NCBI GenBank assembly: GCA_030141605.1
Contig: JAQGDQ010000065.1
Location: 372,001-436,000, forward strand
DNA: 64,000 nucleotides
Direction of reading: 5' to 3'
From: Tubiluchus corallicola
Taxonomy: Eukaryota; Animalia; Priapulida
The notes under the pieces are model-generated. The model was not told where the DNA came from. It did no database searches and saw only the letters and a program-made list of their open reading frames with translations. Both the position numbers and the translations under genes were made by a program. Of this stretch, positions 2,416 to 62,306 are shown one piece after another (the stretch's first letter is position 1; every line of letters starts with the position of its first letter).

Positions 2416-4131
2416 ATGGAAAAACCAACAGTTGAAGAATTCGTAGCACATGTATCGGGTATGATTGAAGAAAAAGATGCAGAGGGATTGTACAAGTTGT
2501 CTCAATCTTCTTGTGTGGATCATATTTTATGTGATGCTGCATGGCATTTATTGCCTTTACTTTGTGAAAGTCTTACTCAAGAAACAGCAGAGCAGTATCC
2601 TGCATATCCATATGCATGTGGAGAGTTTCTGTTAAGGCTGTGCAAGCATGGTAATGCTAAGGAACTTCTTGTTGGTATTTTAGAACATGCAGATACATTT
2701 ATCTGTGATATTCAATACAGTAAGCTTCTGTCAGCTTTGCAGATAATATTGCTTCGGCTTCCTGCTGAAAAGCATCTATATCTGGAGCTAGCTTTACCAC
2801 CAATGTTAGCTCATATTCAGTCTTTACGAGTGCCAGAAGCAAACAGCGTGGACAGTGAGGAAGAACAAATTTTGTATGCCGATGGAGACGTAATACGGAT
2901 TGCTGACTGTATGACAGACTTTGTAGAGTTTCTTCGCCCACTTTTTAATCATGTTAAGCAGTGTGCTAATGATGTGAATGTTCAACAGTCAAAGATGTGC
3001 CTTTCAATAATCCTAATTGGAAGCTTAGGTAGTCCTGTAAATCATTTACCATTAGACGATAAGTCAAGTTGTAAGATCATCGCACATGGTATTATTGAGC
3101 TTTTACTGATTTTAAACAAAAACTTATTTAATGCTTTCTCGTACTTAGCAATGAGCAATGCAAGTTATGACTTTTTCTATTGTCTGCCAGGTGAAGCTAT
3201 TTGTTGCTTGTTTTACCTTATTTTTTGTGAGAAGATTGCATTGGATAGGTTACCATGCGTGCTTCATCCTGTGTATGTAATGCATTTGTGTACTGATATC
3301 ATGAAATCAAGCTTAACACACAAGAGTGCTCAGGTCATCAAAAAATCACTGCTCTTGCTCACAGCTCTCTTAAATAGAATTGATGATTGTGCTAGTGACA
3401 ATCTAGAATTTCAAGAAAGCTATCTTCCAACTTTGCTGATAAATATCACAATTTATAATCATGACAAAGAGTTGCGGCTCATTTCTTTGGATGTTGTGCG
3501 CTTGATTTTCAAGAAATTGCATTTCAGAGCACGAAGCAATTTTCTAGTTCGCATGCTTCACCAGACACAACATTCAGGTGCAAAGGGCTTATTCATAGGA
3601 TTTCTAAAAGATGAGCTCGCATTTCATTTATCTTTAAAATACCCAGCAAAAGAATTCATTTCGGAACCATTCCTTAAGAAATTGCTAAGTCCAGTTTTTT
3701 ATCTTCCTGGTGGGGCAACTACGGATTTGCTTCAAGAGTCTGATAAAATGATGGCTGCGATGAATTTATTACGCTTTCTTCTTATGCGTGATACCAGTAA
3801 TGTGAGTGGTATATGGAACATGATACCTAGCATCACTGCTGAGTTTCTTGATCCCTTGGAAAGAGGCATAAATATATCTAAGGCACACTACAAACTTGAA
3901 CTGGACAACATATTAACAAACAAAACCAAAACTAGTGAATCCAAAAAAATTACTGGTAAACCCGAGATCAGCATTGATGTGGACGGTTTTAGGTTGCCAG
4001 AAGTTACACGCAAACAAGAGATAGATTTGTTAGAAAATGGCATAGCCATGTTTGATTTAATGGCATGCATTCTAGCACATGTTAAAGAAATCATTTATAC
4101 TGCAGAGCGACGTCGGAAAGAGCAAACTTGA
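2416..4131 (+). CDS. GLMN: Glomulin (FAP68 / YAP-binding-ALF4 family), single-exon 571-aa ORF
   Basis: GNAKELLVGILE resembles human CNPKELLLGLLE. DLLQESDKMMAAMNLLRFLLMRD..GIW..FLDPLERGINISKAHY resembles human DLLQNSDRIMASLNLLRYLVIKD..GLW..FLKPLHIGLNMSKAHY. Length is similar to GLMN. Confidence 0.9.
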   Translation: MEKPTVEEFVAHVSGMIEEKDAEGLYKLSQSSCVDHILCDAAWHLLPLLCESLTQETAEQYPAYPYACGEFLLRLCKHGNAKELLVGILEHADTFICDIQYSKLLSALQIILLRLPAEKHLYLELALPPMLAHIQSLRVPEANSVDSEEEQILYADGDVIRIADCMTDFVEFLRPLFNHVKQCANDVNVQQSKMCLSIILIGSLGSPVNHLPLDDKSSCKIIAHGIIELLLILNKNLFNAFSYLAMSNASYDFFYCLPGEAICCLFYLIFCEKIALDRLPCVLHPVYVMHLCTDIMKSSLTHKSAQVIKKSLLLLTALLNRIDDCASDNLEFQESYLPTLLINITIYNHDKELRLISLDVVRLIFKKLHFRARSNFLVRMLHQTQHSGAKGLFIGFLKDELAFHLSLKYPAKEFISEPFLKKLLSPVFYLPGGATTDLLQESDKMMAAMNLLRFLLMRDTSNVSGIWNMIPSITAEFLDPLERGINISKAHYKLELDNILTNKTKTSESKKITGKPEISIDVDGFRLPEVTRKQEIDLLENGIAMFDLMACILAHVKEIIYTAERRRKEQT

Positions 4132-5079: not shown

Positions 5080-8000
5080 ATGATATCAACAAAGCATTTG
5101 ATTTGTGCAAATGATGACATTTATTGGTTTGATAATGAGTGTCATACCAATTTGGTAAATGCTTCTAGAGAAGATCAGTTAATTCTATTTTTGAGTGCCT
5201 GTTGTGTAAACAATACCAGTGTTAAACGTGTTAGCACTGTGTTTGAATGTAGCCAGTTAACTGCATATTATTGCTCAAGGAGGAATAACCACAACATCTT
5301 TGTTCAGGAAGCGGATATTAAAGATAAAACATTTACAGATACCCGTGATATTCATTCGATGGTTAGCAAGTGTATTAAAATTAGAACCAGGTTAAAACAG
5401 AGACCATATGATGCATACGTAATCGCTTGTTTTCTGACAGAAGTCAAGCGGTCCTTTGTGTTACGTCAAGCACTAGTAAAGAAACTGAGAGATTTTTCTG
5501 GGAAGAAACCAAGAAGCCAGCTTTTTCCATTATCTGAAAACAACATACATCTAGTTGTTCAGCTAGAATGGCCAACGAGTCTGTCAGTATGTAAAGCTTG
5601 GTAAGTTGTGGATAATTTCTATCAAAAGTTCTAGGCCTTTGATAGAGTTCTAATTTTTATAGTTATTTAGAAAAAACAAATGGTTGCCAAACATCGTCTT
5701 CTTAATCCCTGTCTTTAACCAGTAAGATAATTGAGGTAAGGGTGCATTAAAATCAAGTGATACTTTATTAGAAATCACTTTATTAGAAAACTCCATGTTG
5801 CACCCCATCTTTTGCTCCAACTGCCTGTAAATCCGTCTTCTAGACGCATGTGTGTACTGTTTTAAGCTGCCTCTTTTTCACTGCTACCAGTTTTTTTGTT
5901 GCTGATGTTGTTTCTTTTTTGTTATCATTGCCATTTAGTTTTTGATGGCGGTGATGATAATGAAGTGAGGATTAGGTTGATAACCATGATGATACTAACA
6001 ATGATTATGATGGTGTGATGTTGATGACACAAACTATGACGCTGATGATGACAATGATGACTATATGGTGACCATGATAATGACACCGTTATTGTTTAAC
6101 TTACTGTCACTGGTTAGACCCCATTGCAAATATTCTACAGGGCATTGGTTACTGTTATACATAGTAACATTTTCTACAATCATCTGGGTCATTATGTTCA
6201 GCCCACGAATACACATATTTCCAATATTTAGGTCATGGCGCCTTATGCTTCTTGTGCTGAAAAAACAAAGTTTAGAAGAAACTATGGCCTGGCTGTCAAC
6301 ATTAGGTGGTGCATATTCTGCAATGGGTGACTATTACATGAGATGTGTATGTATAACTTTCACAGTAATTCATAAGGAATAAGACAAGTTATAAAATTTG
6401 TAACAGTTTTTGTGAATTATTTCAAAAATGGGTAATACTGAAGGTAATAAATGAGGAGTTGTGATGTAAGCTTGTGGGTAAAGTAAAGCAATACTTGACC
6501 GATGTAGTAAATTAATGGCAGGTAAACTGCCTTTTGGCCAGTTTCTCGAACTCTCATCTGCATGCTGCCTTGCTTATTTCACAAAACAAAACTTTATTTT
6601 GTCAGAGCATGAAGATTGTAAATTTTTCAACATTAAGGTACTGTTCTTTGAAGTTGACTGTTTGCAAATTGGTCTAGATATGACAAACTTGTCACTTTGA
6701 TTTGGGATTTCAAATTTTACATTATGCTGATGCAAAAACTGAAGCAGTTTACATGAACACAATTGCAGTTAATTTGGAATTTCAGTACTACAATATAACG
6801 TTATTATAGCGAATATACTAGTATAGGGGACCCAAAAAAAGGTACTCTATAACCGAGGTACTCTGTAATAAGCATATGTGGCTAATCACACACACACACA
6901 CACACATATATATACATATGTATGACTAGATGGACATATAACAATAACATAAGTATATAAATAATGTACACTGCTTGGTTTCATAGAGACGCTATCAAGC
7001 ATCAACTGATTTGAATGTAATTTCAATAAACTAAAAGTTAATGAACATTTCATTTAAATTGCATGTACATGTTCTGATGTAAACTTATATGACATGTTCA
7101 GAAAAGTTAATGAGATTAAAAACAGTCAGTCAATTGTGTTTGCACAAAATTTCTGTTTGTTTCTTGTTAAAAAAGTTTTTTAGCAAGTAACTGCTGTAGT
7201 GTACATCATCACTTGATGAAACATCTCAGTTTCCAGTGTACACCAGTGTAAATAAAACAGCTAGGTGCCAAGTTGCTGAGTGCCAGTGTGTGCTCAATGA
7301 ACTTTATGTGCTCAATGTTTGCTTTAATGGTGTTATGCTGCAGTAGAATCCGTATAGGAAGACAGTGCAAAGGTGCGTTTCAACTGGATGACCTAGTGTT
7401 CCCTCCTAGTGCTTCCTGACCATGAACGTAGGCAAAAATGGCACACTTAGTAAAATATGTGTTTAGGGTTGGGTTACAGCTGGGATAATTATTTTAGTTA
7501 TTTTTACCTCTGCCAAGGAAGTTATGCTTCAACACAGTTTGTTTGTCTGTTTAGTTTTTTGTCTTTATGAAAGTAAGCCTATTATGCAAAAACCATATAA
7601 CAGATTCCAAGAAACGAGTGCCAAATCTTTTCGCTGGTCCCTTTTTCGCAAAATTTGACGGAACACCATGTGCAAAAAATACGTGAAACATTTCTTGGAG
7701 ATCTCAGAGGTAGTGTTTAGTATTTATTTTTTGTTATTTCCACCTAGACAAACAACTATGAGTTAATTCCAGTTCCATTTTGGGAAATTCTCACTTGTAA
7801 ACCTGTATGACGCTGTCTATAACCTTTGCTTATTAATATGTAGTCTTATAAGGTGACTTAGTACGTATATTTGTCAGTCTATTACCATGGCTAAAATTAA
7901 TAGTTAAAAAAGTAGATAAACACTATGTGGCATATTCATGCATTTAACGAACAAATATTGTTTGGGCTTTACGGAGACAAACAAACAAAGTCATCATTCG

Positions 8001-11000
8001 CTCAGTGTAACTGTTTATTGTTTGTACTATTTTCATGGCACATGCCCCGTAGTCATATTTGCTTCATCCCAAAATATTACATTTTATCTGAAATAATATA
8101 TAAATTTCTTTAATAAACTGATTCATTTTTACCAAAACATCGAATATGATTAAATTAATGAGAAGCTTACAACAAAATAAAATAAATGACTAAATAAAAT
8201 TTACGTACATCGTTGGGATTAATCATGAGTTCACGCAGCCACGTCACCACATGTACACCTTGAAACCTAAATGACCGGAAACTCTGTAGGAAGCGACTAT
8301 TGAGGCCAGGTGTCGCCACTTGTAACTTATAGCTATACTAAATTTGACAAACAAAATCCTTGACACCGCCTCCTTAAATGTATGTTAAACATTTACTATT
8401 TACTACAAAGAGTTTAACTGAGCAAAAATCTTTACGAACTGTGCAATCTAATTTTTACAGTGCTTCTCCTTTAAACTCATCAAGTGCGCTTTCAATCAAG
8501 CATAATCTGTGAATGGGGCGCTGCAGCTGCCCATCCTTTGTTTTTAGTGTTACGCTTCTCACTAGGCCGTCTCTTCCAACATGTTTTTCCGTTATTCGAG
8601 CAAGAAGCCAACAACTTCTGGGGGTTTCATCCATTATCAGTACAACGTCGCCTATTTCGACATCCTTCTTTTGACGATTCCATTTTGAGCGGATCTGGAG
8701 AAGCGGCAAGTACTCCGTCTGCCAACGTCGCCAAAAGACATCAGCTAGGTATTGGATCTGGCGCCATTTGCGGCGATAGATGTCTGCTGATGTAAACTTT
8801 CCAGGAGGCAGGTTTGTTAAGTTACACTTCGCCAACAGCAGGTGATTGGGCGTCAGAGGACTACAGTCTTTTGGGTCGTCCGAGGTTGCCGTTAAAGGCC
8901 TACTATTGACAACGTTTTCAACAATGCAGAATAGAGTGTTGAGAGCTTCATCATCAAGAGCTTGTTCATTTGTCACAGAAAGCAAATGCTTCTTGACAAT
9001 CTTGACCATTGCTTCCCATACTCCTCCCATGTGGGGAGCTCGGGGCGGATTATACTCCCACTCGATGTTTTCCTGGAGCAAATCTTTCTGAATAGTGTTG
9101 TGATTCCACTCTTTCATAGCCTTGGAAAGTTCCTTGTTGGCACCTATAAAATTAGTGCCACAGTCGGACCTAATTCTGTTAGGTTTGCCTCTTCTGCTAC
9201 AAAATCTATGGAGTGCTTTAATGAAGGAATCTGTAGACATCGAGAAGAGTACCTCCAAGTGGATGCTTCGTGTGGCTAGACAAGTAAAGAGTGCCCCATA
9301 ACGCTTCACCTCGATTCTACCGCGTTTGACCACAATTGGTCCAAAGCAGTCCACGCCAACCGCAGAGAAGGAGCCTTGTTGAACTCTCTCAGGAGGCAAG
9401 TTGGCCATTTTTTGTTGCAATGGTTGAGAGTAACGCAGCCTACATTGTCTGCATTCATGGATTACTTTCCGCACCATGACTCGCATCCCAATTATCCAGA
9501 ACGCTCTACGGACGGAAGCCATGACATGTTCTCTTCCTGTGTGTCCATTCGTCTCGTGGAAGTGCTGTATGACAAGCCAAGAGAGTCTATGATTTTTGGG
9601 AAGAATAATAGGATGACGAGCTTCATGATCTACTAGAGCATCTTGCAGGCGACCGCCGACACGCAAAATTCCCTCTTTGTCAATAAAGGGATCCAGCTTA
9701 TACAGGCAGGATGATTTGGTTACAGAGCGTTCTCGGCATGTAGATTTGGTACGGGAACACATCGTCTTATATTCTTTGTTGAAACTTTGCTTCTGTGTGT
9801 GTCTGATCAGCTCATTCTGGGCCTCATTTAATTCAGTCAGAGTTAGATTTGTGGAACAATCCATATCACTTCCGCCAGAAGCTTTCCTGTGCAATATTGT
9901 TTTGGCTCGTAATAACCAGGCTAAACCTCTTTTTAGCCTGTAAAAGGATGAGTAATACTGCAACAATTGATCTATGATATTATTTGAAGTTCCCTTGCAT
10001 TCTACGACGTTCACAGTGGCTGACCGCTTTACTTCTTTGTCATTAGCTAGTATATCATCCGAATCTAAATTAGTCTGCGGCCACGAAGCTTCATCTTTTC
10101 TTAAGAAAGATGGACCAAACTTCCATCTATTGGAAAGTAGCAATTCTTCAGCGCTCATGCCTCGGGACGCATCATCAGCGCAGTTGTCTGTTGAGCTAAC
10201 AAACCGCCATTGAGTTGGTGAAGAGACTTGCAAGATTGAGTTGACACGGTTTTGGACGAATGTATGAAACCGCTTTGCTGTGTTCCGAATGTAATGAATA
10301 ACTATCTGACTATCAGTCCAGAAGACCGACTGATCTGTACCAACACAAAAGGATAGCTCTTCCCTTAGCATTTGATCAACTTTTGAGGCTAAAACTGCAG
10401 CGCAGAGTTCAAGACGCGGTATTGTAAGACCTTTAAGTGGGGCAAGTCTTGATTTAGCCATGAGGAATGCTGTGTGAATTTCACCTTGAGCACTCTTCAT
10501 ACGTACATAACTGACAGTACCATAAGCATAGCTCGAAGCATCGCAGAAATGATGCAACTGCAAATGGAAAATCAGGCCAAAATCACGAGGCTTCATGCAT
10601 CTCTCCAACTTGAAGTTTTCTAGTGCGAAACAATCTCCTTTCCACTTTGCCCACTTGGCTTCTGTATCTCGTTCTAGAGCGTCATCCCAATCCTTTTTCT
10701 GAATTCTACATTCATCTTGGAAGAGTTTTTTGGCCTGCAGAACGAATGGACAGATCATTCCTAATGGGTCATAGACTGACGAAATGCAGCTTAACATTCC
10801 TCGTTTTGTACTGGGCTTGTCTTTGAGTGAAACCAAAATTCCAAGGCAATCTTCCTCAACTAGCCATTTAACTCCCAGTACGCGATCAGTTGGCAGAGGG
10901 CTCTGAGTTAAGTCAAGATTCTTGATTTCACTTCCACGTTCTTCAGCAGGCACAGATGCCAAGACCTCACGTCTGTTGCTCATCCACTTAGTTATGTGGA

Positions 11001-14000
11001 ATCCACCAAGAGACAATAAGGCAGTCAGTTGAGAAACTAGCTGTATGGCTTCATTCACGGTGTTTAGCGATTTTAAAAGGTCGTCCACATAGAAGTTTCT
11101 CAAAACGGTAGCGACAACATTTGCGGGAAACAGATCTGCATTGTCTTTTGCAGTCCTTTGCAAAGCAAATGATGCAACGCTCGGGGACCACACCCCGCCA
11201 AACAAGTGTACACACATTCTAAAAGTACGTGGTTGACTGTTAAGATTTCCATCTTTACACCAAAGGAAACGCAACATATTTCTGTGTTTAGGAGACACGA
11301 TCACCTGGTGGAACATCTCCCGGATATCCGCCATTACTGCAATAGGATTCTCTCGAAACCGAAGCAAAACTCCAATGCACGTGTTTGTGAGATCTGGCCC
11401 TTGCAATGGTAATTTATTTAGAGATATTTCATTTGTTTCCGCTGCTGCATCAAAGACGATGCGAGTTTTCTCCGGTTTATTGGCATTAAACACCGGAAAA
11501 TGGGGAAGAAACCATTTCCTGGAAGTAGGGTCATCATCTTCATCGACCTCTTCTGCATATCCTTTCATGAATAGGTCATTTATAGCTATAGTGTATCGGT
11601 TGTGCAATTCTGGGTTCCTCTGCAGCCGTTTACGTAGACTTTCCAATCTAGATGAAGCCATTTGTAGCGTATCTGGTAAAACATCATTCTCAGATTTAAA
11701 TGGGATGTCCAACTGGTAATGCCCATGTGTTTTTGTGATTGAAGCCTCCCATATATCGAGAGCACGCATATCGTCTCTAGAGAAGTGTCTGTCAGACTCG
11801 CTAGTTTCAATTTTCCAGAATTGTTCTATTTGCTGCTGCAAGGAATTGGTTTCTCCATATGACAATGCATTGGCTTGGGTTAAATTACTACAAATGCGCC
11901 CTAAATTAGGAACGCCGCCTCCTATGGGTCCATTAAGGGTCCAGCCTAGCTTTGTCTTCACAGCATATGGCGTTAGTCTAGGACCTGTTCGTACCTCAAG
12001 AGGAATCAGCGCATCAGGAACATCCTGGCCGATCAAAAGTCCCAGTTCAGTTAGGTCTTCTGTATCTGTGAACGATAGGGGAAGTCCTTGCAAATGCGGC
12101 CATTGTTCTACATCCTTGCTAAAGGCCAAGCAGTCCTTTTCCAGTAACAATGCAGGCCTAACGAAGACATGAGGCAAAGCTATTTTATTGCCAGTGTTTA
12201 CCCCAGTAACAGACATCTTCGTGATTAAAGTGTTTACCTTGGAATATTTCTCTTCTATAGTGGTTAAAGAGAGCGTTCGTTCTTGTCCAGTAGCCCCAAG
12301 TTTGTCGAACAATGCCTTTGTACAAAAAGTGTTAGTCGAGCCAGGGTCAAGTAGGGCTAAAGTACGCACGGGCATCTTCCCATCAACTTCAACCAAAACT
12401 GACACAACAGGGAGAGCAGCTTTGCCGCCTTCCTTAATACTAGCACAACTGCTAGAAGCTTCTGGTTTGCAATGTGTTAGCGCTTTTTCCTCCTTGCTTC
12501 CATCATTGTTTTTAGAAGGTGACATTTTCTCCAAGGCAGCATGCAGTAAATTTGAATGCTTACGTCTGCAACCTTCTACGTCGCATCCTGCTTTGAAGCA
12601 CCGAGCAGCCCTGTGCTTTCCTTTAATCAAACAATTGAAGCAAAGACCTTCTCTTCTGGCGGTTTTCAATCTATCAGTATCATTCATTGACTTAAATTTA
12701 TTGCATAGCCTGAGTGAACGGTGTTCCGTAGAGTTACATAGAAAACAAGGCATCTCTAGGCGTTGAGAAGCCATTTTGCCACCACTTCCGGTTGTATTTC
12801 CGGGTTGTCGTTCACTGTTGCATTTCGTAATTGGCGCAGTTTCCTGCGCTGAGCTGGCGAAATTCCTGGCTTTGGTGTCGCGTTTACCTTTTGGGCTCCT
12901 GGTAGGCAGGCTAACGTTAATGTCGCCAAAAACAGGATGATTCATTTTGTCAGCTGCGTCCTTAATGAATTCGACTACATCAAATATCGTCGGATTCCTG
13001 TGCTCATATTTCAGAAGCCTGGCTACAACATCCTTCCACCTATCCTGGAACTTGAATGGGAGTTTTTTAATTATTTGTAGCAAACTGCATTGAGTACTAA
13101 TTTCGCAAACGTTGTTCATTATTTTCAAAGTTTCCACACAAGCCACAATCAAATCCGAAAATTCCTGTAACTTTCCCGGTTCATTTATCTTTATGGGCTC
13201 AAATTCAGCAATTCTGGAAAGCCAGGCCTGTGTGACAACAAATGGCGAACCGAATCTTTCGGTTAAAAGCTGTTTAGCATGCCCATATGCAAAACGGGGG
13301 TCCATGTAATTACAACTGTCTACAACTCTTTTAGCTTTACCAATGCAGAGTTGGGCTAACCTAGTGTACCTCGCTGCATCATCTTGGGTATAGTTCTCCA
13401 CGCTGGCTTCGAAACGCTTGATAAAGCTCCAGAACTTCATTACGTCACCATCAAACGTTTCAAGCTGCACGTGTGGAAGCTGCATAGCATTGTACATATT
13501 TAAGTGTTGTCTTTGGCCTTCTAACATGAGGTCCATAAAAACGTTCATGTCATTCTGACTAGCCCTACCGGAGAAATTCCTAGAATTATTTTGTATCCCG
13601 TTACCATAAGAAGCCTGAGGCGATGTAGCCGGAAGCGGAAGTAGCGTATTCCCTGGGACGAAGTCACGTGCAGAAATATTTAAAGTTTGTTCTACCTGGG
13701 GTGATTTAAATGCGGCATGGAAGAACGGCGTAGTTTGTTTAACGCTAGGTTCTAAAACTTCACTGGGAGAATTTTCGAAGAAGGGTTGTACATCAAATAA
13801 ATAGATATCCCACCATCTACGAAGAAAACCTGATTCATAGTCATCCGAAAAATTGACGTTTACATATTCAGTATAATCCCAGGGCTTCTTTCGGCCCAAA
13901 AAGTGCGCAACTTTAATCTTGCTACTGAACTGCTTCATTGCAGGAAGGTAACCGTAACGACCTTGGACGGCAGCATTATACACAAAAGGTAGGCGCTTGT

Positions 14001-17000
14001 CAAACTGTAAACTCCAGTTCGGAAAGGCTAAATTTAATAACCCCTGATCACCGCCATCGAATGAACAGGCCTCAGTTTGTGATAGTGACATCAATCTACT
14101 GTAAGTTTCCAAATTGGGCTGAAATACAAACATTCCAGAATTAAAACAATCAGGCCACCCCACATCTGGGGCAGCCGCAAGCTCATCATAATTGAATAAC
14201 TCATCAATATTATCTAATACTAAAGTATCAGCATCTAAGTAAACGCACTTTGTAAACTGTGTCATAGCCCAGCAGTGCAATTTCGAGAATGTTACATTTA
14301 GCTCTGGCCTACCTAGCAAATGCAAGTTATCAAAATCACTACTCTTTAATAAATCAATCATTTGTACATAATCAAAAACATTACTAAGCTTTGCCATAAC
14401 TCTGCTAGAAACAGTATGGGTGACCAAAATTGCTAGATGTCGAGTTGTACCAGTTCGACGCAAACTGTGTGCCAAGACAAGAGCTCCCTTAGCATAACTG
14501 TCGTTCGTTGCCATGGTGAGATAGGCCTCCATAGACGTATGATGAACTGCAGGCTTGGTGTCTGATGACTGGGCTTTGGTGACGTCACGCACTCCTTGAA
14601 GCCAATCGGTAACCTTGTCCTTGGTTGACATGGGTTTCCTAGCTAAAGTCTCGTCTTTGATTTCAGGCGAGGTGACGGTTGTACGCGACTTCTGACTGGT
14701 TGCACTGCTATGTGAAGTAACTTCACTCTCAAGTCTTAACTGTTTTAATTTCATTGCTTTTAATTTCAGCTCCTGTTCCTGAATCTTAATCTCATGCAAC
14801 TTTAATTCCCTGGCACTTTTCTTCGACCGTCTCGTAGATTTCGAATGACTAGCACCTGAAGATGCTTTGCGCTCAACAACTTGATGCTGCGCTGTCGCTG
14901 TAGCTGCGTCAGCATACGACGACGTACCAGACGCTTCACATGACGTCACATTATATGAATGATCTGGTTTCTGCTGACTTGCTAAGAGTCTGTGAATTAG
15001 CTCTTCTTTACTACCAGAAACTGACAGTTGTTTAGCCCGCAGCATTTCTCGCAGCTGATCACGGGTCGTATTTTTTAATTTCTCCCTTGTTGTTTGGTCC
15101 GACATCATTTAGGTGTGTTCAACTTTAAACATGACCAAATAACTTCTCCTGTCTACAAAAGTCAATCTATGTACGCGAAACAGTAGCTAAACCGGAAGTA
15201 GGTCACAATCTGGGTCATATGTTGACTGTATAAAAATGTCCACTCTGGATTGTCGAATGCCGATATAAAATTGTTTGGGCTTTACGGAGACAAACAAACA
15301 AAGTCATCATTCGCTCAGTGTAACTGTTTATTGTTTGTACTATTTTCATGGCACATGCCCCGTAGTCATATTTGCTTCATCCCAAAATATTACATTTTAT
15401 CTGAAATAATATATAAATTTCTTTAATAAACTGATTCATTTTTACCAAAACATCGAATATGATTAAATTAATGAGAAGCTTACAACAAAATAAAATAAAT
15501 GACTAAATAAAATTTACGTACATCGTTGGGATTAATCATGAGTTCACGCAGCCACGTCACCACATGTACACCTTGAAACCTAAATGACCGGAAACTCTGT
15601 AGGAAGCGACTATTGAGGCCAGGTGTCGCCACTTGTAACTTATAGCTATACTAAATTTGACAAACAAAATCCTTGACAAATATTGTTGTAAGTTTTGCTA
15701 GTCTATATAATACCAATACAGGCATTTTTTGTATGTTTGCATGTTTATCTTTGTGTTAAATTTTTTGAATCAAAATAATCAGACGAATAAGATTAGGATT
15801 GTTCAACTTTAGCAGAGATCTGCTTCATACTGAACGCATTCTAGTTTTATTATATAAGTCAATTGCATCAGTATAACATATGTGCCATTTTCCTACTTTT
15901 CCATTTGTGCCATTTTTACTTACTTTTCCAGTTCTGCCATTTTTACCGGGCACCCCTGACCACATATGGTATAGGTTAATGCTGTTAACCACAATGTGTG
16001 CCTTTAAGGCCAATACCAAATTCATACCAATTTGTACAAGAACAAAGTCAGAATCATGACTGGCAGCCAAAAATTAGCACCAACAACATATAAACCAAGA
16101 CTAGCAAAATGGTCTTGAGATCAAGACCAGTCTTGAAATGTACAACTCATTCTAGCAACAGAATAATGTTCACAACTTTCAAGCTTGTTAAAATTTATTT
16201 GTAGGCAGAGATTGCAGGAAAAATTTCTGTTCAGCAGCTACAGGTGGCATTGGAGACGGGTGATCAAATATTATCAGCCAAATGCAGAGTTTATATTGCG
16301 ATAAGTTTCATGCAAAGAGGCAGATTGAAAGATGCAAAGAAAATTATCAGGTTAATTTCTGTGTTGCTTTATAATTATTGATTAACTAGATATATAACTT
16401 TTATAATGAAATTGCAACTTGTGACATTTTAACTGTTCTTGGGTCAGGGGTCAAACCAAATTCGTGTCAACCTTGTTCAATTTGTTTCATCCAGGCCTTT
16501 TATTTGGTATACTACAAGCCATTGTTGTTCAACACTGGAACGACCCCTATTTTCTGGTTTTGGCCCCTAACAAAAATTGTTTTCCGCATCCATATTTCAA
16601 TAATGTAGAAGAATTCAACTTCTAGCCACATAACAAAAATTGTCACCCTACTTAAAAACTGTAGAAGGAACTGTAGAGCCTAATGAAAAACTGATAGACT
16701 CTACTTTCCTTGACTCTTTGACCCAATGTCACAGTCACTACTCCGTTGTTTGAAGTCCTTTTACAGGTATATGCAGTGCAGTTTTGTGACTCAAGTGTTG
16801 TGACTTTTCCAGTTATTGACAAAACTCTGCTTTAACACTTTTGTCACACGACCTGGCCATTCCCATTTTCCGAAAAGTACTTAATACGCCATTACTTGAC
16901 TACTCATGCGTGTAAAAACATGGACTCCTAATTGAATACTGCAAGTGGAGTTGAGTGACAAAGCCATTTGCCCTAATTTTCACATTCTGGCTCCTGCTGT

Positions 17001-42400: not shown

Positions 42401-45400
42401 ACACACCCAAAACCCATGTTAACTTAGATATATTGGATGCTTAAATAAAACATTACCCAGTTCCGTGACTGTACTTGTCAGGTTATACAATTTACTTTAA
42501 ATTTGGATAGAAGTGCTTGACCTGGTGTTGATTTACTCATGGCTCGACATTGCTTCATTTTTTTGCTTCTTATGTTGGATTGAGTTTCTTGATTTATATG
42601 TAATTTTTAGTTTTGTTTTTGTTGAGGTCAAAGGGCAGAATAGGGTCAATCTTGCACAAAATATAAATAGCATTTTGATTTTAAGGAAAAAACAGGTCAA
42701 ATTTGTTATGTAATAATAAAAGCACTTTGAGTTAATAATGCAATTAATGAACAACAAGAATTAAATACATTTTGATTTGAGTTCAACTTCATCATTTCTA
42801 GATTTATTGATTAAAAATAAATCTAATGATTTGGACAATAATACTAAATAAAATAATTTTCAATATGCTGATAATTTTGACAAACATTTAGCTATATAGG
42901 TTTTTTTTAATAATTTTATAAAGGAAAGGTAAGACTTGTGCAATCTGTGAACAACACCCGAAACTTTACTCATAAAATAGTACTGCGGTATGACTTTAAA
43001 AATTACTGTGCTGCAAAGAAGAGAAGAAAGACAGAGTATTTCCTGATATTGATGATAATATCTGTAATGGTCTGTGGATTTGCTAATTTGTAGAGTTCAT
43101 TTGTATTAGTAATTTGTAACAGCATTCAAAGTACGAATCGGCAGCTCGTTATTCAATAATTGAAAAAAAATTAGTTGAGTATTAGAGTACATTTTCTGAG
43201 CCACAGATTCATGCCATGCTGTAGTATTTTCAGTTTTATGAATATTAATGTAGTTAAGATTATGAAGTTAGATAAAGAAAATAGAATATAGTTGAGTAAG
43301 AGCTTAACATTAACCAGAGTAAGTTAACAGCAATTGCTTTTTAAGTTTAGAGATCAACATATAGATATTGTTAGAATCTTTAATATTACTGTTCAACCAA
43401 TTCCAAAATTTAACAGCTTTATATTTGATAGTACTTAATCCATGAGTGGTACAGAATCTGGGCGTAAAATATAGACCACAAGTGGCAGATCTATTTTCGT
43501 AGTTATGGATTTCAGATATGGGAGTAAAATAGTTAGAGAATAGTTCAGGTAAGTTCTTATTTTCGAAACAATACATGAATTTGGCCAGCTTTAATTGGTA
43601 AATTTCATCAAGTTTTAACAGTTTAGGTTTTCCATAAGAGGGTGTAGCATGAGCACGATATGGGCTAAATGTAATGATTTTCACTATCTTATTCTGGGCT
43701 ATAATGAGTGGTTTTAGGACAGATGTTTTTGCAGTACCAAAGCACAGAATACAATACTGGAGATAAGGATATGCAAGTGAGTAGTAAGGCATTCATAAGA
43801 TGAAGGTGTCTAAGAAATATTGCACTTTAGCAAAAAGACCAATGAGCTAATTAAATTTATACGTGACTGATTTAATTTGAGTTTTCCATGACAATGTATT
43901 ATCAATGTACAAACCAAAGTATTTTATATTATCGGCTGCAATTAATTCATGATCCCCATAAACAGTTTAAAAGTATTACATGCATCGAAGGCTTGGTTAG
44001 AAATAAGCATATATTTTGTTTTTTCATAGTTTATTGTTAACTTATTAGCCCTCATCCATGTATCTATCTTGTCTAGTTCATTGTTAGTCTTGAGTTGAAG
44101 CTGACTAAGATTAGTACAACGTAAAAATAGGTTTGTATCATCTGCTAATAACAGGACGTGGAAATCAGAACAGTGTGCCAAATAATTAATGTGAATTAAG
44201 AAAAAAAGGGGACCTAATGTAGAACCTTGGGGAACTCCACATCTTATGCCAGTGATATCCGAGTGGGTATTGTTTATGCAAGTATATTGTTTATGATTGC
44301 TAAGTATGATTTTAGTAGTTCCAGCGGGGTACTCCTAATACCATAATGTTCGAGTTTGTTAAATAGTATGTGATGCTGTATGGTATCAAATGACTTTGAA
44401 AGGTCAAGAAATATACCACAAGTTGTTAATTTTTTATCTAAGTTGGAATGAATAGTATCTATTATTTCTGTCATAGCGAGCATTGTTGAGTAGATTTTCC
44501 TGAAGCCAAACTGGTACTTGCATAAGATGTTGCAACTGTTAAAAAAGTTGGAAAGTCTAGAATATATTACAGATTCAAAATTTTTTGCAATGGGGGACAG
44601 TAATGAAATAGGCCTATAGCTAGAAAGAACATCTAGGTCATTAGATTTGTAAATTGGTAATATTTTAGCTAGTTTCAGTTCATCAGGAAAAATACCTAGT
44701 GAGAGTGACTTATTGATTGTATGAGTTAGAACTGGAGAGATTATGTCAGCAGTGATTTTATAGTATTTTATTGGAACATTCTCGGGAATGGCAGCCTTAC
44801 TAAATATCTAGTTTTAATATAAGCAATGTAATTTCTTCTATGGTGACTGGATTAAAAAAATTGAGTTTTGATTGCTTGGGCCAAGAAATTGATAAGGACC
44901 AGCAGAGGAGTTAATGCTATTAGCCATGTTTTAACCAGCTGTTGTAAAAAATTGTTGACATTGTTGGCTATTAGCTTAGGAACTGTGATTTTGTTTTTCC
45001 TTGCACTAATTTTGGTTGGAGTAATCCATTTTTTTGTTACCAAGAATTTCATTTAAGGATGACCAAACTTTTTTAAATTATTCTTGTTGTTATTGATAAG
45101 ATTATGATAATATTTTTCCTTGGATTGGGCCTTAATATGATTAAGTTTATTGACATAATTTTTGTACTGTTTTTGCCTTAGAGTAGAATCAGACAGTTTA
45201 TGTGTTTTATACATTTTACTGCGATTACGAATAGAATTTAAAATAGCAGGTGTTATCCGGCTTCTTAAATGTTGATTGCTCTTTTCTGGATAAAGATTTC
45301 ATGGGAGCATGTTTATTAAGAATACTGATGAATATTTTTGAGCCTTTAATTTTGGTAGCTATTGTATTGTGTAAGGAACCCGAAAAAACAAGCTTAAAAC

Positions 45401-49169: not shown

Positions 49170-52100
49170 TATATATATATATATATATAATAATCTTTAT
49201 TTGCCATTAAAAACATTGATAATCACTGATAAAAACTTTACAGAGATAATCAATCAGTGTTAGTTAATAAAAATTTACACTGCTGAAGGCAAATGCGTCA
49301 GTGCCATCTAAACTACTGTGCAGTAATGACGAATAAAATCAAACATATTTACAACCATATACAAAAAAATAAAAAATAAAAAAAAACTATGATTTAATTA
49401 ATATGGCCGTGGGTATATGAATTCTGAATTAGTGTGTATGTTGTCGTACTGGTGTGATGGCATTTCATATCTGGTTAATATTAGTGATTTTAATTTTGTT
49501 TTAAATGCTGATAGGGACTTGATTTGTTTAACCTGTAATGGTAGAGAATTCCAAAGTAAAATTGCTTGTTTGATTACAGAGTTCGTTCCATAGTGGGTAT
49601 TTGTCCTAATTTGTTTTAGATTGCTTGTTCTGGAATTAACGATAGGATTTGGAAAAAAGGTAAATCTGTTATTCTGGAATGGTTTGCTGATGTTGTTAAA
49701 GTATTTAAATATAAAAAGCAGAGTAAAATATTCTTTGTGTGCTTCAATGATTGGGAATTTTAAAGTTTTTCTCAGGTTAGTTGTTGAAGCTTTGAATTTT
49801 TCTCTACCTGCCTTATGTTTGTATGAGTACCCAGCTATCAATCTCAACGCATAGTTTTGAAGGAGATTTAATTTTAAGTAATTTTCTCTTTTGGTTTTTT
49901 GAAGTAGCGTACATCCATATAAGAAGTGTGGTAGAACTAAAGTTTTATATATTAGTGTTTTAGTTTCCTTTGTTAGTTGCCCTTTAACTTGTCGGAGATA
50001 TGATGTGCTAGATGCCATTTTTGTGTATATGTTATTAAAGTGTTCATCCCATGAAAGATTATTGTCTACCTGTATGCCCAGGAATTTAACATTGTTAGTT
50101 TGTTTGATTACAGCATTATCTATTGTCAAAGTGGTTGATGATGCATCATTAGTATTTAATGAGGGTGACAATATCATAAATTCTGTTTTGTCATTATTCA
50201 TTTTTAGCTTGTAATGACTAAATGCCATATTTATATTTTTTATATCTTCTTCTAAATAATTTTTTGCAGTTTGGACATTTTCATGGGCTATGTAGATTGT
50301 AGTGTCATCAGCGTATTGCGTTATTTGTGAGTGTTTTAATACACTGGATATGTTGTTTATATATAGGCAAAATAATAACGGACCTAGTAGTGTTCCTTGC
50401 GGTATACCTCTGTTTAACGTGGCCCAGTCAGAAAAGTTGGTTGTATCTAACTTTACTCGTTGTTGTCTGTCTTTGAGATAATTTTGTATCAGTTTTAACG
50501 ATGTCGAATCTAATCTGATTTGTTTTAAATTATCGTAAAGTAGTTCGTGATTAATGCTATCGAAAGCTTTACTTAAATCTAAAAATGCTGCTAAAATGTA
50601 TTGCTTGTTGTCTAAACTATGTCTCCAATTTTCTGTTGTGTGTATTACAGGCGTCAATGGTTGAATGGTGTTTACGGAAGCCAAACTGATGTTTTGATAA
50701 AAGTCCATGTTTATTTACATATGAATTTATCTGATCATAAATTACCCTTTCCCAAACTTTGCCAAAACAATGGATTACGGAAATTGGGCGATAATTCATG
50801 GGATCACATTTTGAATCTTTTTTATGGATTGGAGTCACGTATGCCATTTTACATACTGTTGGAAATTCGCCTCTCATAATTATCTGATTAGCAATGTAAG
50901 TCATATGCGGGGCTATTACAGATGCACTATCTTTTAGAATTTTGATAGGAATATCTGATGGCCCACTCCCTTTGTTGGAACTTAGGTTATTTAATATGTC
51001 GTTAATTTCTCCTACTGTGACGCTTTTGAATGAGAATACTGTGTTGGACGATTTGTTTTTTAATTTGTTAATTATATTATTGCTAATATGAGAAGCCATT
51101 CCCTTAAAATTTCCAAGATTCAGGAATATTGCATTTAGCGCGTTGGCAATATCTTTGGGTTTTGTAATAACAGTGTTGTTGATCTTAATTTCGTCAACAC
51201 GCGTTAGTTTGTTACGACATTTATTTATTACATTGTTAATAATTTTCCATTTTTCTTTAGTATTTCTTACGTTTTTACATTGTTGTTGTATATGTTTATT
51301 TTTCAAGCATTTATTAAGATTATTAAATTGATTTCTCTTTTTTTTATAATTGTTATGATTGTATTTAGTTTTGTTCTTTTCCCATATATTATACATTTTG
51401 TTTTTCGCTATTCTTAGTTTGTCAAGTTCAGGTGTTGTCCAGGTACTTTCGTTATTGAGTTTGTTTTGTTGTGGGATTTGCTTTACGTTTTTATATGGTG
51501 CATGTACATTAAGGCAATATTCGACATTATATATCAGAATATTAACTTGTGTATCTATTTTATCAGTCATATATATGGAGGTCCAGTTCATTTTTGCTAA
51601 GTCGATTAAGTATGAATGTTTGTTGTATTGGGCGTAGTCTCTCATTAAGTGCCAGACTGAATTTTGGTTATTGTTATGCTGTGGGGTCATTTTATCTACT
51701 AATATTGTGAAATGACGATCTGAATAATCACACGGGAAAGTATCATATGCTACGAAATTATTGTTACTATTCGAAATGAAATGGTCGATTACTGTGGCTG
51801 ATGTTTTAGAAATTCGAGTGGGTTTATTGTTGTTAAGTATGTGGACATTATATTGTTTTAAGAGCTCTGTGTATGTTTTGTATGCCAGTGTGTTAGTAGC
51901 TAAAATATCAAGGTTGAAATCGCCCATTATAAGAACTTTTTTATTTTCGAAAACAATGCGTTCTAGTTCTTCACTAAAGTATTTGAAAAATGTTTTGTGT
52001 TTGAGATTGGGTGGTCTATATATGGTTCCTATTACATAGTTTTCAATGCTGCACCAAACAGATTCAATCTTGCCGGTTCTGATGCCTTTCATTTCTTGTG

Positions 52101-53330
52101 GTCTCAGGTGTGAAGGTATATACATCGCAACCCCTCCACCTTTCTTATTTTTACATCTATCTCTTCTTATTAATGTGTGATTAGGTAATTCTATAGTGTT
52201 GCTAAGTATTTGTTTATGTAGCCAAGTTTCTGTTATGCCTACAATCAGATTTTCGGTGGCGTGAATTGTATCTTTCAGCAGCCAGTGTTTTTTGACGAGA
52301 CTTTGAATATTTATATTTAGAAATTTGATGTTCTTTTTATAAGTAATCATGAATTTTTTTAGCTCATCACTGGTATTATTATTGTTGGTGTTATTGTTAT
52401 TGTTATTATTATTATTATTATTATTTGGCAAAATGGGTCCAGGGTTAGTTTCGATACCACCAAGTATAAGTAGTAAACGAATTATGGTTAAAATGTAAGC
52501 CAGTTCAGAACATGAGTATATAGTGCTTTCAAATTTAGATGAAATCTGTAATTTTCCCAATTTTTTTAGAGCTACGTATTTTAGATTGACATGACGCATT
52601 TGCCTTTTTAGGAAGTACACAGAGTTAAAAATATTTTTTACAAGTGGTTGAACGTCATAATTAAAGTTCAAATGATTAAAATCAGGCCAATTTTTAAGTT
52701 TAAAAATATGATAATTCTTAATTATTACAGGTAAGTTGGTATTGCCATTGTACAGCTGTAAGATGCATATCGAAGCAATAAATAAAATTTTATGGGAATT
52801 ACATTTAGCTTTTACACATATGAAAATTTTTGAAATATAAATTAAGATCTGTATTACTTATTAAGTCAAGAGTATAAAGCACAAAATCAGGATTAAGGCA
52901 ACATGGGTCCACTAGTAAAATATATGAAGGTATTACGCTTAAATTTATCAGCACCATAATTAATTTACTATTGTGTGACTTAGAAAGAGTAACGTAAATT
53001 ATGAGAGTTAGACTGATTGCCAATAGGCTAATGTTAACGATAGGCCTATAACATGCACACATTTCATCATTAGTGGGTACATTATATGAAGTACAGGCGG
53101 CACTAATTGGGCAAATAACGTGAAGATGTGTGCCCTTGCAATATCTACATATTATTTGAGATGAACACATCCAAGCAAAGTGACCACCTTCTAGGCCCTT
53201 AAAATTGTATCATTGAGCTTGTTTCTTCTGCTTTGAGCGGTCGTAAACTGATCAGAATCTGCTGACCAGTAATTCTGATGGCAAAAATGGCACGAAGTCG
53301 GTGGCTGATCCTTCTTCGACATTCTATAAG
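49170..53330 (-). mobile_element. Near-complete CR1/L2/Crack-group LINE: ORF1 zinc-knuckle remnant, ORF2, 3' UTR, (TA)n tail
   Basis: APE and RT domains; 3' end AATAAAGATTAT then (TA)n at about 49165-49190; knuckle remnant GH FAWMC..CRYCKGTH..C near 53110-53215. The 5' limit is approximate. Confidence 0.88.
49398..52671 (-). CDS. LINE ORF2 (APE endonuclease + reverse transcriptase) split by one +1 frameshift near 50648
   Basis: APE: NINIQSL, GITETWL, GGGVAMYI, IYRPP, MGDFN, IDHF, SDRH. RT: NYRPIS, QFGFR, FLDLSKAFD, GIPQG..LGP, YADD. The paralog at about 60575 reads GAC CCC CTA ATA where this copy reads GAC GCC TGTA ATA. Confidence 0.85.
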
Positions 53331-53639: not shown

Positions 53640-54110
53640 GATGCACCACCAGCTTATGGACAGGGCGTTCCAAAATGGTTGCATCAGCAAGACTTCTACC
53701 TTGGTTGTCTAATACTGAATGAGCCATTTGAAGACGCACTTTTCTTATTTCACCCTCAGCACTAGGATTGGTTTCTTACGCTCTAGCCAACGTCCAATCA
53801 TTTCTAGTACGACCTTCATCTTTCACAAGATTATATCATCAGCTTCTACCTGGTGCTTAGATCCATGCCACTTAGGCCTTGTCTGAAAATTTTGGAGAAA
53901 TGCCTACCACCCGGACCAGAACAGATTTGCCCAGTGTTGCACTCTTCTCCAACGTGTGTGTGAACATTTTACATTCTCCACGAAGTTACTTGGTGAAGGC
54001 ATTATGAATTTCGATTTAACCTTCATCATGAGCAATTGATTTGGAGTTAACGGGTTAAGAAACTGAGAATCATTTATGGACTCTGTAGTCAGAGAATGAC
54101 TATTTACTAT
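53640..54110 (-). pseudogene. Decayed BEL/Pao integrase C-terminus (DUF5641)
   Basis: PLTPNQLL..RWRRVQHWANLFW..QTRPKW, with stops. Confidence 0.75.
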
Positions 54111-54586
54111 TTTAATGTCTTTGGTAATATTACATCAACTCGATAATTACTATTTGGACAACACTTCAACACTTTATTATTTCAAATGTAATGAACGATA
54201 CATTAAACAAAGAAAATTAGCATGTACTGTCAAATGCCTTATCTTACACATGTTCTCCTTTCCAGGCATCACTAACTAACCCACATCACTAAGCACAAGA
54301 TTTCATGCATATACAACATTTCCTTTCTCCTACTTGTGAACCTGCATACAAAATTAAGCCCAAGAAATTCACTCTAAAATGAAACACACATTGCAATTTG
54401 CAGGACAAAAATTTCCCATAGGGCTTGGATGAATCTCATCCTCAAATCAACATGTGCAGTGTGAACACTAACTTTTGAAATTTGTTAACATTAAACTGTA
54501 TCTAGTAACTAGCATATGTTTGCCCTATATAGGATAGCAAGACAAATCATATCTAATATATCTGTGTCCTCAAGCAGCAGAATTAA

Positions 54587-57010
54587 TTACAAATTCAGCC
54601 GTTTTGGAGGAACAATGGCTCTTTTAGACCTTCTCAAGGTAGTGTTAGGATTTTCCTCGACATGAATAGCATTTGGTGATTTAACAGGTAACACATCTTT
54701 ACATGTGTCAGGTCCTTTCACTACAAAAGGTTTTTGGTTTACAATTGGTTTTACAGAAGTGTTTACAGTAGTAGTAGAGGGCATCGTAATATCGGGATGT
54801 AACTGTACATGGGACAGGAACATTACAACTGATTTTGGTTCAATTACACTAGGCTTAACATGCGGCTCTTTGCCAACTTTCAGTTCACAATCACTTCTTG
54901 CATCATCATGCATCAAATGATCAGTGTGCACAAATCGAGCAAAATTACCAGGTAGTTTAACTAAGTACGTATGAGGACCCTTGATTTCAGTTATTATACC
55001 AGGAATCCACTTTTCTCTACCTTTTCTCAAATTTCGAACTTTAACATGTTAATACAAACTGTATACACGAGATTTAGGGTTTTTACCATCACGATGTAGT
55101 TTACTTGCCTCTTGTTTATGTTCTACCTTACGCTCCAAGCTAAGTTTAACTAAAGACAACACAGTTCGAGGAGCTCTCTTTAGAAAAAGTTCAGAGGGAG
55201 TCTTACCAGTAGTGCTTTGGTACATTGCGATAATTAAATAAAACATGTGCTATTTTATTATGTAATGGCATACGAGCATCACACTTTTTGTACATCTGTT
55301 TAAAAGTATGCACATATTTTTGGTGGTATGGTGGGCATAGAGTGTGTTCGATATCATTTTGCTGTAAAAAGAACTTGAAATCTTCAGTAATGAATTGGGG
55401 TCCATTATCTGAAACTAATCTTTGGGGAAGGCCAAATTTTGCAAACAAGGTTCTCAAAGTTGTAATAGTAGCAGACGAAGAAGTACTTGTCATCGGAAAA
55501 AAGCTCAAGCCATTTAGAAAAACTATCAACAACTAAGAAAAACATCTGACCTCTAACTTCTGCGAAATCTTCATGAATCCTTTGCCAGGGTTCTGTGGAC
55601 CAGGGCCACAACAAAAGAGGAACAGGCTTAGGGTTCTTACCCAAGTCTGAACATTGTTGACAAGTCCGAACAATTTCTTCGATGTCCTGGCCACCAGACG
55701 AATGACCTCGCCATAGCCTTCATTCAAGTAACACCTGGGTGGCAATCATGAAGTTCAACTGGCATTCTTTTCTGCAAATGTACAGGAACAACTACTCTCC
55801 TACCCCAGAGAAGACATCCATCCTCAACTGACAATTCATCTTTGCGCTGAAAAAATGGAGAGAAAATTTTATCCACTTCAATCCGCCAACCAAATAAAGT
55901 GTACTCATACACTCTGGACAAGAAAGAACCGTTGGCAGTTACACTTGCAATTTCACTAGAGGTTATTGGCAGATTATCAACAATAACATGACAATTCCAA
56001 TGCTCATTGGGGTCAGCAGTAGCATGATTATTAACTGGGAATCTACTCAACATATCGGTTTTAGCATTTGCATTACCAGAACGGTACACAATATCATACT
56101 GATATCCTGACAAAAGCCCATCTTTGCATCCTGGCAGCAGCTAGAGTAAGAATGCTAGTCTTAGGACCAAAAATTCGAGTGAGAGGCTTATGGTCCGTCA
56201 TTAAAGTGAATTTTCGCCCATACAAATACATATGGAAACGCTTTACACCACAAATTATTGACAAACATTCGTTTTCAATCTGAGCGTAACCCTTTTCAGC
56301 AGAACTTAAGGTCCTAAGTGCAAAAGCAATAGGTCTATCCGACCCGTTTTCCATCTTGTGGCTCAAAACTGCTCCTAAGCCAAAAGGAGAAGCATCTACA
56401 CTTAAGATTAGTGGCTTCTGAGAATCAAATTGCACAAGAACCTGAGCACTTAACCAAGACTCTTTAGCAAACAAGAAAGCTCTTCACATGCTTTTGACCA
56501 GGCCCATTTAGCAGTATGCCTTAACAAACCATACAAAGCATGCAGTTTAGAAGACAAATTGGGCGCAAATTTGGCGTAATAGTTTACCATACCCAAAACG
56601 ATTTCAACTCTGACACATTTGTGGGTTTTGGTGCTTCCACAATAGCAGTAATTTTATTCTCTAGAGGGCGTATGCCATCAGCATTTAGTACATGTCCCAA
56701 ATATTTAACTTCAGGCTTGAAAAATACACACTTTTCCCCATTCAATTTAACATTGAACTTTGTCAATTGTTCAAAAATTCTTTTCAAAACTTTCATGTGC
56801 TGTTCGTATGTTTCGGTTGCAATAAGAATATCATCAATATAACAAAGTAGTTCTTCAATACCAGCTAAAATTTTATCCATGGTAGCTTGAAACTGAGTTA
56901 TTAACTTAATACCATAGCTAGTAATCCCTAATGTGTATTTAACACTAAATACCTTGGATAAATTCTTCATCCAACAACAGTTGGTTAAAGGCATCCTTTA
57001 GATCAAGACC
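54587..57010 (-). pseudogene. Decayed Ty3/Gypsy pol (RT - RNase H - integrase)
   Basis: CYIDDILI, VDASPFGLGAVL, YAQIE.E, TDHKPL, WQRIH.DFA, LVSDNGPQF, ending LRRSKR..PPKRLNL; multiple frameshifts. Confidence 0.88.
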
Positions 57011-57059
57011 TTGATGTCGCCTCCCGCAGCTATAAACCTACGTAATGCCAAAATAAAGC

Positions 57060-62021: not shown

Positions 62022-62306
62022 GACCACGTTTTTTGGCACTTTCAATGACGCATCGTACATAATCTAAACTCGGTGAATATGAACATCGTTATGAATTTGC
62101 ATTTAGAAAGTAGCTGAATTTTCTTATTTTCGTTGTTGTTTTAAAATACTTCGCTGCTAACACTGCTTTTCAGCCTGTTTAGTTTATGGGATTTCAAACA
62201 TCAGTTTAGAGCTACTAGTAATTTCTTTGTTTGGTTGATAATCACTGTATAACTTTTAATTTGCAAAGCTTTAATTCCCTTTTGTTTAAAAGCTGTGTGT
62301 TTTTAG

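Follow-up and report, generated by a model that had tools for sequence, protein, structure and literature searches.

How did an enzyme of glycogen synthesis come to reside in the Gag of a retroelement, and what might it do there? This question is raised by a 64,000-nt stretch of DNA (the window) from Tubiluchus corallicola (Priapulida; assembly GCA_030141605.1, contig JAQGDQ010000065.1, positions 372,001–436,000). Herein, a BEL/Pao long terminal repeat (LTR) retrotransposon of 7720 bp occupies positions 7959–15678 on the minus strand, and its Gag contains a catalytic domain derived from glycogenin, the self-glucosylating GT8 primer of glycogen synthesis. The element belongs to a recently mobile family that carries this glycogenin-derived enzyme in Gag.

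Gag and Pol are encoded by one open reading frame (ORF; 8455–15108, minus strand) of 2217 aa with zero stops. Both LTRs measure 407 bp, have the ends TG...CA, and are identical at 407/407 bases, which indicates that the insertion is very recent. The element is flanked on either side by ATATT, a 5-bp target duplication. LTRs, duplication, and ORF thus bear out the coordinates and domain order of the intact BEL/Pao element with a stop-free 2217-aa ORF that a preliminary description of this locus had reported. The in-frame glycogenin that it had placed at 13783–14532 is real as well: aa 193–442 align end to end, over ~250 aa, with human and rabbit glycogenin-1 (E 3e-84). The domain is intronless, in frame at both ends, and starts with a Met. 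It has kept the DxD motif (292–294), Lys276, Asn323, Asp351, Asp354, Gln355, and His402, which we take to be metal-binding or catalytic residues. Furthermore, Tyr385, Tyr387, Asp351, and Trp318 align with Y195, Y197, D160, and W128 of GYG1. Glycogenin is a dimer, in which Y195 of GYG1 is the acceptor and Y197, D160, and W128 are its contacts across subunits, as described in the available portion of PMC12267440. Of the columns conserved at 95%, 55/57 are kept, and 66/72 of those conserved at 90% (267 homologues; host median 99%, 5th percentile 88%). Only 75/172 of the remaining columns agree with the nearest homologue of the element, and identity to the fetched glycogenin homologues reaches up to 57%. 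The synthase-binding tail is absent: with a profile built from 98 glycogenin tails, which detects 129/154 held-out glycogenins, the element scores <0 bits. A tail motif (found in 89/151 hosts) was dropped for this data-derived profile. Because the tail is missing, this is a glycogenin-derived catalytic domain and not a complete glycogenin, and short glucose chains are likelier than a full glycogen coat. Judged by its residues, the domain is likely still catalytically active.

The fusion was followed in public DNA runs, four of the six listed runs containing the stretch (share 0.65–0.72, 2 studies); the evidence consists of assembled contigs. Runs X1 and X3 represent one sample, possibly related to the source of the window though differing from it at many sites, and X4 and X5 represent two further studies. 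The 3' junction (~13783, on the side of the capsid (CA) domain) is bridged in X3 by a 605-nt contig (13262–13866) reaching into CA and in X4 by a 123-nt contig. The 5' junction (~14532, on the SAP/linker side) is bridged in X1 (14363–14675), in X4 (14321–14564, with 32 letters on the short side), and in X5 (14291–14659), where 42 letters differ and the sequence is ~89% alike. The 5' junction thus also exists in a relative of ~89% identity. Depth is similar across both junctions, and no contig joint skips the glycogenin domain; of the 48 joints in X1/X3, the 15 listed all lie within the flanking repeat. The fusion is not an assembly chimera, a possibility the preliminary description had considered, since contigs bridge the junctions. 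Nor is it the one-off capture also contemplated there: related copies carry the domain, and no contig examined skips it. The contig depth in the element relative to the unique flank is 4.9–8.9x in X3 and 4.9–7.0x in X1, a hint of several element copies, depth not being copy number.

Two diverged variants were observed besides. At 13898–14239, one contig of X4 differs at 19 letters, shows a 2-nt deletion, and has a depth of 127, compared with ~39 for the neighboring intact-like contig; this rise is absent along the rest of the element. The contig is possibly an amplified decayed or nonautonomous derivative with part of the glycogenin domain. At 12442–12804, a second, more diverged relative occurs in X1 and X3 at about flank depth; over 340 nt, it has 43 differing letters and 25 gap positions.

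The architecture of the element, from its 5' to its 3' end, is as follows.
15679–15683 (−): target-site duplication, 5' copy (ATATT)
15272–15678 (−): 5' LTR, 407 bp, TG...CA, 407/407 match with the 3' LTR
15109–15271 (−): leader of 163 nt, canonical primer-binding site not found
8455–15108 (−): single Gag-Pol ORF, 2217 aa
14983–15066 (−): weak SAP-like motif, aa 15–42 (Pfam E 6e-5, 23.0 bits against a cutoff of 23.9)
14533–14982 (−): S/K/T-rich linker by composition, with a long helix predicted near aa 100–129 by a low-confidence model
13783–14532 (−): glycogenin catalytic domain, aa 193–442 (Pfam, alignment, motifs)
13456–13782 (−): N/S/P/Q-rich linker and pre-capsid helix, without a glycogen-synthase-binding tail
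12943–13455 (−): CA domain, DUF1759 (Pfam, model with pLDDT 84, fold matches)
12526–12747 (−): nucleocapsid Cys/His knuckles, aa 788–861 (invariant Cys/His columns in two alignments, A2 and A3)
12109–12393 (−): aspartic protease, Asp921 (Pfam below cutoff, catalytic motif)
10819–11511 (−): reverse transcriptase, YVDD at aa 1340 (Pfam below cutoff, catalytic motif)
10309–10809 (−): Peptidase_A17 region (Pfam E 2e-43)
8497–9591 (−): integrase with HHCC, D-D-E core, and DUF5641 (Pfam and motifs)
8366–8375 (−): polypurine tract, directly before the 3' LTR
7959–8365 (−): 3' LTR, 407 bp
7954–7958 (−): target-site duplication, 3' copy (ATATT)

Pfam matches above cutoff were obtained for Glyco_transf_8 (aa 197–413, E 2e-17), DUF1759 (552–693), Peptidase_A17, Integrase_H2C2, and DUF5641, whereas SAP, RVT_1, rve, and Asp_protease matched below cutoff only. 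The set anticipated in the preliminary description was thus recovered for Glyco_transf_8, DUF1759, Peptidase_A17, and DUF5641 and fell below cutoff for RVT_1 and rve. The catalytic motifs of protease (PR), reverse transcriptase (RT), RNase H (RH), and integrase (IN) are all present in the ORF; the Peptidase_A17 region presumably overlaps the RNase H of BEL/Pao elements. The 30 nt that follow the 5' LTR show no TGG-type primer-binding site. Priming may be noncanonical, the insertion being very recent and yet lacking a TGG-type site beside the LTR. The GC content is 0.40 in the glycogenin domain compared with 0.42–0.47 in the rest of the ORF, with no clear capture signature. The element is inserted beside a very high-copy repeat (15690–15950) with a 27-nt tandem unit and a depth of up to ~54,000 in X3; an arm 76% complementary to this repeat lies at 7425–7457.

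The family Belpaoviridae is defined by LTRs of 0.2–1.2 kb, a genome of 4.2–10 kb, an 18-nt primer-binding site for tRNA-Arg or tRNA-Gly, and a polypurine tract of ~10 nt (PMC8742986). The element, with LTRs of 407 bp and a genome of 7720 bp, lies within these sizes and has a polypurine tract before the 3' LTR. Its Gag contains both capsid and nucleocapsid domains, as expected of Belpaoviridae, and its Pol follows the order PR-RT-RH-IN in one ORF, one or two being typical of the family. The Pol is of the BEL/Pao type (Peptidase_A17 with E 2e-43, together with DUF5641), and 114/114 Gag-PR homologues are Pao-type by Pfam. The nearest database relatives include echinoderm ones, with an RT-RH identity of up to 58%, the BEL/Pao tree being built without curated reference clades. 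SAP is carried by 4/114 of these relatives. In nonautonomous retrocopies, the cargo interrupts or replaces coding sequence; the element, by contrast, has a complete gag and pol in a single open frame.

Where does the enzyme lie within Gag? A model of aa 500–870, computed from 41 aligned rows (pLDDT 84), matches at aa ~548–728 the capsid domains of dArc1, PNMA2, Copia, and MLV (Foldseek best E 6e-3), with Z 8.2–8.4 for dArc1, PNMA2, and Copia and an rmsd of 4.9–8.5 over 150–165 residues. Hence, the enzyme is located N-terminal to CA, between low-complexity linkers. The helix near aa 100–129 stems from a single-sequence model of aa 1–900 with pLDDT 36.5, which was kept out of the fold searches. 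In 89 relatives, the Gag core is preceded by a median of 203 aa and a maximum of 526; in the element, it is preceded by 540. GT8 was not found before the Gag core in 24 relatives scanned, most of them picked for long N termini. Six BEL/Pao relatives (P0279, P0334, P0330, P0333, P0278, and P0289) have 460–526 aa N-terminal of the Gag core without a Pfam domain, and this slot may hide other captured domains. An Atlas search with aa 1–720 gave no usable match, which shows neither absence nor novelty.

The origin of the domain was approached by a tree of 34 rows, with 25 animals and 8 fungi chosen by name from the fetched set. Herein, the domain stands on the animal side (100/100) with an end branch of 1.11 compared with a median of 0.43 and without a starred sister; a quick tree of 176 rows agrees with the animal placement. 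By this tree, a fungal source is rejected, and a grouping of the domain with glycogenins of crayfish and krill (95/75, unstarred) was not taken as evidence of host identity. Two contigs (one from X3; one from X5, of 1254 nt and depth 9.9) share only 47 and 38 nt with the domain, within its most conserved motifs. Both continue in frame as a different glycogenin, the flanks being identical to the element at 11/19 and 12/19 residues (23/38) by hand translation of 30-nt loose ends. This second glycogenin is probably the host gene, as the simplest reading; it may also come from a co-sequenced organism or another element. Because the likely host gene is <80% alike at the DNA level over most of its length, the capture appears old. 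Among differences in X1/X3, 38/40 rows are coding and 24 synonymous (40 of 1185 rows; 2 noncoding dropped). Within the domain, 11 of the 19 differences seen in X3 or X5 are synonymous and 8 are not, compared with a neutral expectation of 21–28% (p 0.006), and 0/8 of the nonsynonymous changes fall on the 40 invariant sites. This gives a modest signal that the domain is under constraint. That the capture is old and has been kept by purifying selection is considered quite probable.

From this, the following course is proposed. Through template switching, a spliced glycogenin mRNA would have donated its 5' coding portion to the N terminus of Gag, a variable region; this step is highly probable, the insert being intronless, beginning at a Met, and ending before the tail. 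Selection on the element would then have retained the enzyme. Since a single frame encodes both Gag and Pol, the enzyme would be part of every polyprotein. Acting as a dimer, the enzyme would glucosylate itself at Tyr385 from UDP-glucose and form short chains only, synthase not being recruited, which is held with reasonable confidence. The benefit might arise at the particle surface, with Gag tethered to the glycogen granules of the host, or to its glycogen-binding proteins, in those cells in which the element transposes, a step that is conceivable but stays clearly below an even chance. The reading preferred here is that an active self-glucosylating Gag domain, captured long ago and kept by selection, decorates the outside of the particle with short glucose chains during assembly. 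On sequence grounds, this reading is tentative, its prospects falling just short of even.

Several points weigh against it. The outward facing of sequences N-terminal to CA is a feature of other capsids, and the protease of the element might release the domain from Gag. The C loop is short, with 21 residues compared with a mode of 26 (range 14–35), and no Pro aligns to P238 of GYG1, a residue linked to autoglucosylation in the accessible text of PMC12267440; a short C loop without this equivalent could mean lower activity. The likely host gene is known only from four 30-nt flanks selected for being unlike, and part of the branch length could stem from a host lineage that was not sampled. As for selection, the result of 0/8 at invariant sites has a chance of ~25% under neutrality, and the test comprises 33 domain rows among a tool-chosen 40 of 120, taken one codon at a time. 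Of the 14 rows seen only in X4, 7 are synonymous and 7 are not even though two invariant sites are hit, which leaves the signal blurred. Many of them lie on the high-depth contig with the 2-nt deletion; this deletion and the invariant-site hits suggest decayed copies. Finally, no single contig covers the whole glycogenin domain, the depth ratios are not copy counts, and the 3' junction is not bridged in X5, which has no cover at 13742–13959 or on the unique flank (a hole that proves nothing).

What else could explain the domain? It may be freed by the protease as an active enzyme, so that a tail-less glycogenin alters host metabolism as a decoy partner or UDP-glucose sink. The low-complexity linkers on either side, the domain's own Met, and the absent synthase-binding tail would suit this explanation, as would the processing by protease that is assumed for belpaovirid polyproteins (PMC8742986). 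However, processing is assumed to come after assembly, so the domain would ride on Gag first, and the explanation is unlikely overall. The domain may instead be a neutral passenger, a tolerated in-frame capture constrained only to an open frame. LTR elements often acquire mRNA pieces according to the sections at hand of PMC5131818, decayed domain variants are present in X4, and the selection test is small. A passenger is nevertheless improbable given the 5' junction in the ~89%-identical relative of X5, the synonymous excess among the domain differences, motifs that are intact despite the distance from the likely host gene, and the lack of a deletion derivative among the contigs examined. A third explanation sees the domain kept as a folded dimerization or spacer module aiding Gag assembly, with catalysis irrelevant. 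It fits the dimeric state of glycogenin, the contact residues named in the portion of PMC12267440 at hand being kept, and the tolerance of relatives for N-terminal regions that reach 526 aa and contain no Pfam domain. If the role were purely structural, however, drift would be expected, yet the residues for catalysis, for metal binding, and for accepting glucose have all survived a long branch, which renders this explanation improbable. A chimera of a host glycogenin gene or transcript with a BEL element, to which the want of a contig spanning the domain might point, is largely refuted and has a negligible probability, as single contigs bridge each junction in more than one study, junction depth is even, and the domain lacks introns and keeps the frame on either side.

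The element with its enzyme-bearing Gag has no second copy in the window. Its only BEL/Pao companion there is the degenerate remnant of a distant element (53826–58180, minus strand), which shows 29–40% protein identity in pieces. An intronless 571-aa ORF of the glomulin/YAP/Alf4 family at 2416–4131 (plus strand) is possibly a retrocopy or a compact gene. A LINE-type element at 49398–52599 (minus strand) encodes endonuclease and RT in two frames and has ~89%-identical inverted relatives at 59353–62021 and 62306–64000; 59353–61046 and 62307–64000 are 99.9% identical, pointing to a tandem duplication or an assembly repeat. ORFs of 174 and 160 aa at 5080–5604 (plus strand) and 43310–43792 (minus strand) have no Pfam match.

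Is such a fusion known? Glycogenin joined to a retroelement was found in 0 of the 120 long GT8 proteins listed of 163, in 0 of the best 150 of 11,236 representatives, and in 0 of the 120 listed of 393 shorter proteins; GT8 occurs in 0/114 of the BEL/Pao relatives. The 486 proteins fetched include 370 that resemble glycogenin and 114 that resemble Gag/Pol, and 0 combine the two, transposon ORFs being under-annotated in protein sets. With six exact peptide patterns, which reach close relatives only, a metagenome scan returned three loci (L001–L003), all plain glycogenins without retroelement similarity, and a scan of viral contigs returned no match. The preliminary description had known of no LTR element with glycogenin, and none was found in the sources searchable, that is, in titles and abstract openings, with most subscription papers, Repbase, Dfam, and GyDB outside this scope. 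The passages searched of PMC6238403 contain no word beginning with "glyco". A GT8 protein of baculoviruses, P13, considered as a precedent, was not confirmed by the literature search and is not used. To our knowledge, extra domains in LTR polyproteins mostly serve nucleic acids, chromatin, entry, ubiquitin, or apoptosis. An env is the sole extra gene mentioned in the International Committee on Taxonomy of Viruses (ICTV) profile of the Belpaoviridae (PMC8742986) and in the available part of a BEL/Pao survey (PMC3118150). This would perhaps be the first retroelement encoding its own sugar-transfer enzyme, with glucose-primed particles that plug into host glycogen granules, for instance to be stored, shielded, or carried in the germline, a view that is rather doubtful at present. 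Kept in the Gag of a recently mobile family, an enzyme that primes carbohydrate synthesis would connect the assembly of retroelements with glycogen metabolism, a connection not found in the literature searched. The domain also provides an enzyme that can be assayed directly and a way into the particle biology of BEL/Pao elements, of which little is known (ICTV, PMC8742986). Were it no more than a passenger, the domain would still stand out as an unusually clean example of the long-lived capture of a host enzyme by a coding-complete element.

Compared with known systems, the element resembles BEL/Pao (Belpaoviridae, Semotivirus) in its LTRs, size, polypurine tract, single ORF, the order CA-NC-PR-RT-RH-IN (NC, nucleocapsid), Peptidase_A17, DUF1759, and DUF5641 and differs in that its Gag holds a GT8 glycogenin domain, as none of the 114 relatives does. 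With animal glycogenin-1 (GT8; PDB 3t7m and others), it shares the whole catalytic domain, the DxD, His, Asp, and Lys motifs, and the acceptor Tyr; unlike glycogenin-1, its domain is without a synthase-binding tail, has a shorter C loop and a long branch, and is part of a viral polyprotein. The closest precedent found is the giant Gypsy element Burro/GYPSM1 of planarians, which, in the excerpts at hand of PMC6431247, likewise contains host-like domains (BIR, BCL2, MATH, ankyrin, and dUTPase) in frame in a complete LTR polyprotein. It is, however, a Gypsy element of giant size, with the domains C-terminal to Gag and no glycosyltransferase among those described in these excerpts. Recombination of mRNA into LTR elements, including a BEL element, has been described in animals (Tan et al. 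2016, PMC5131818, in the portion available), and the element here likely arose in the same way, by recombination with a piece of mRNA. As far as the accessible sections go, those LTR-mediated retrocopies and eBxnv-1, a Bel/Pao element with viral cargo that lacks gag (PMC5177903), are young, discontinuous, or without gag and are treated as nonautonomous, whereas gag and pol are complete here and the cargo looks old and constrained. In its proposed working only, the element can be likened to the chloroviruses, in which, by the partial sources at hand, a virus-encoded glycosyltransferase acts on the virus's own capsid protein; there, the enzymes are of other types, encoded by separate genes of large DNA viruses, and produce N-glycans.

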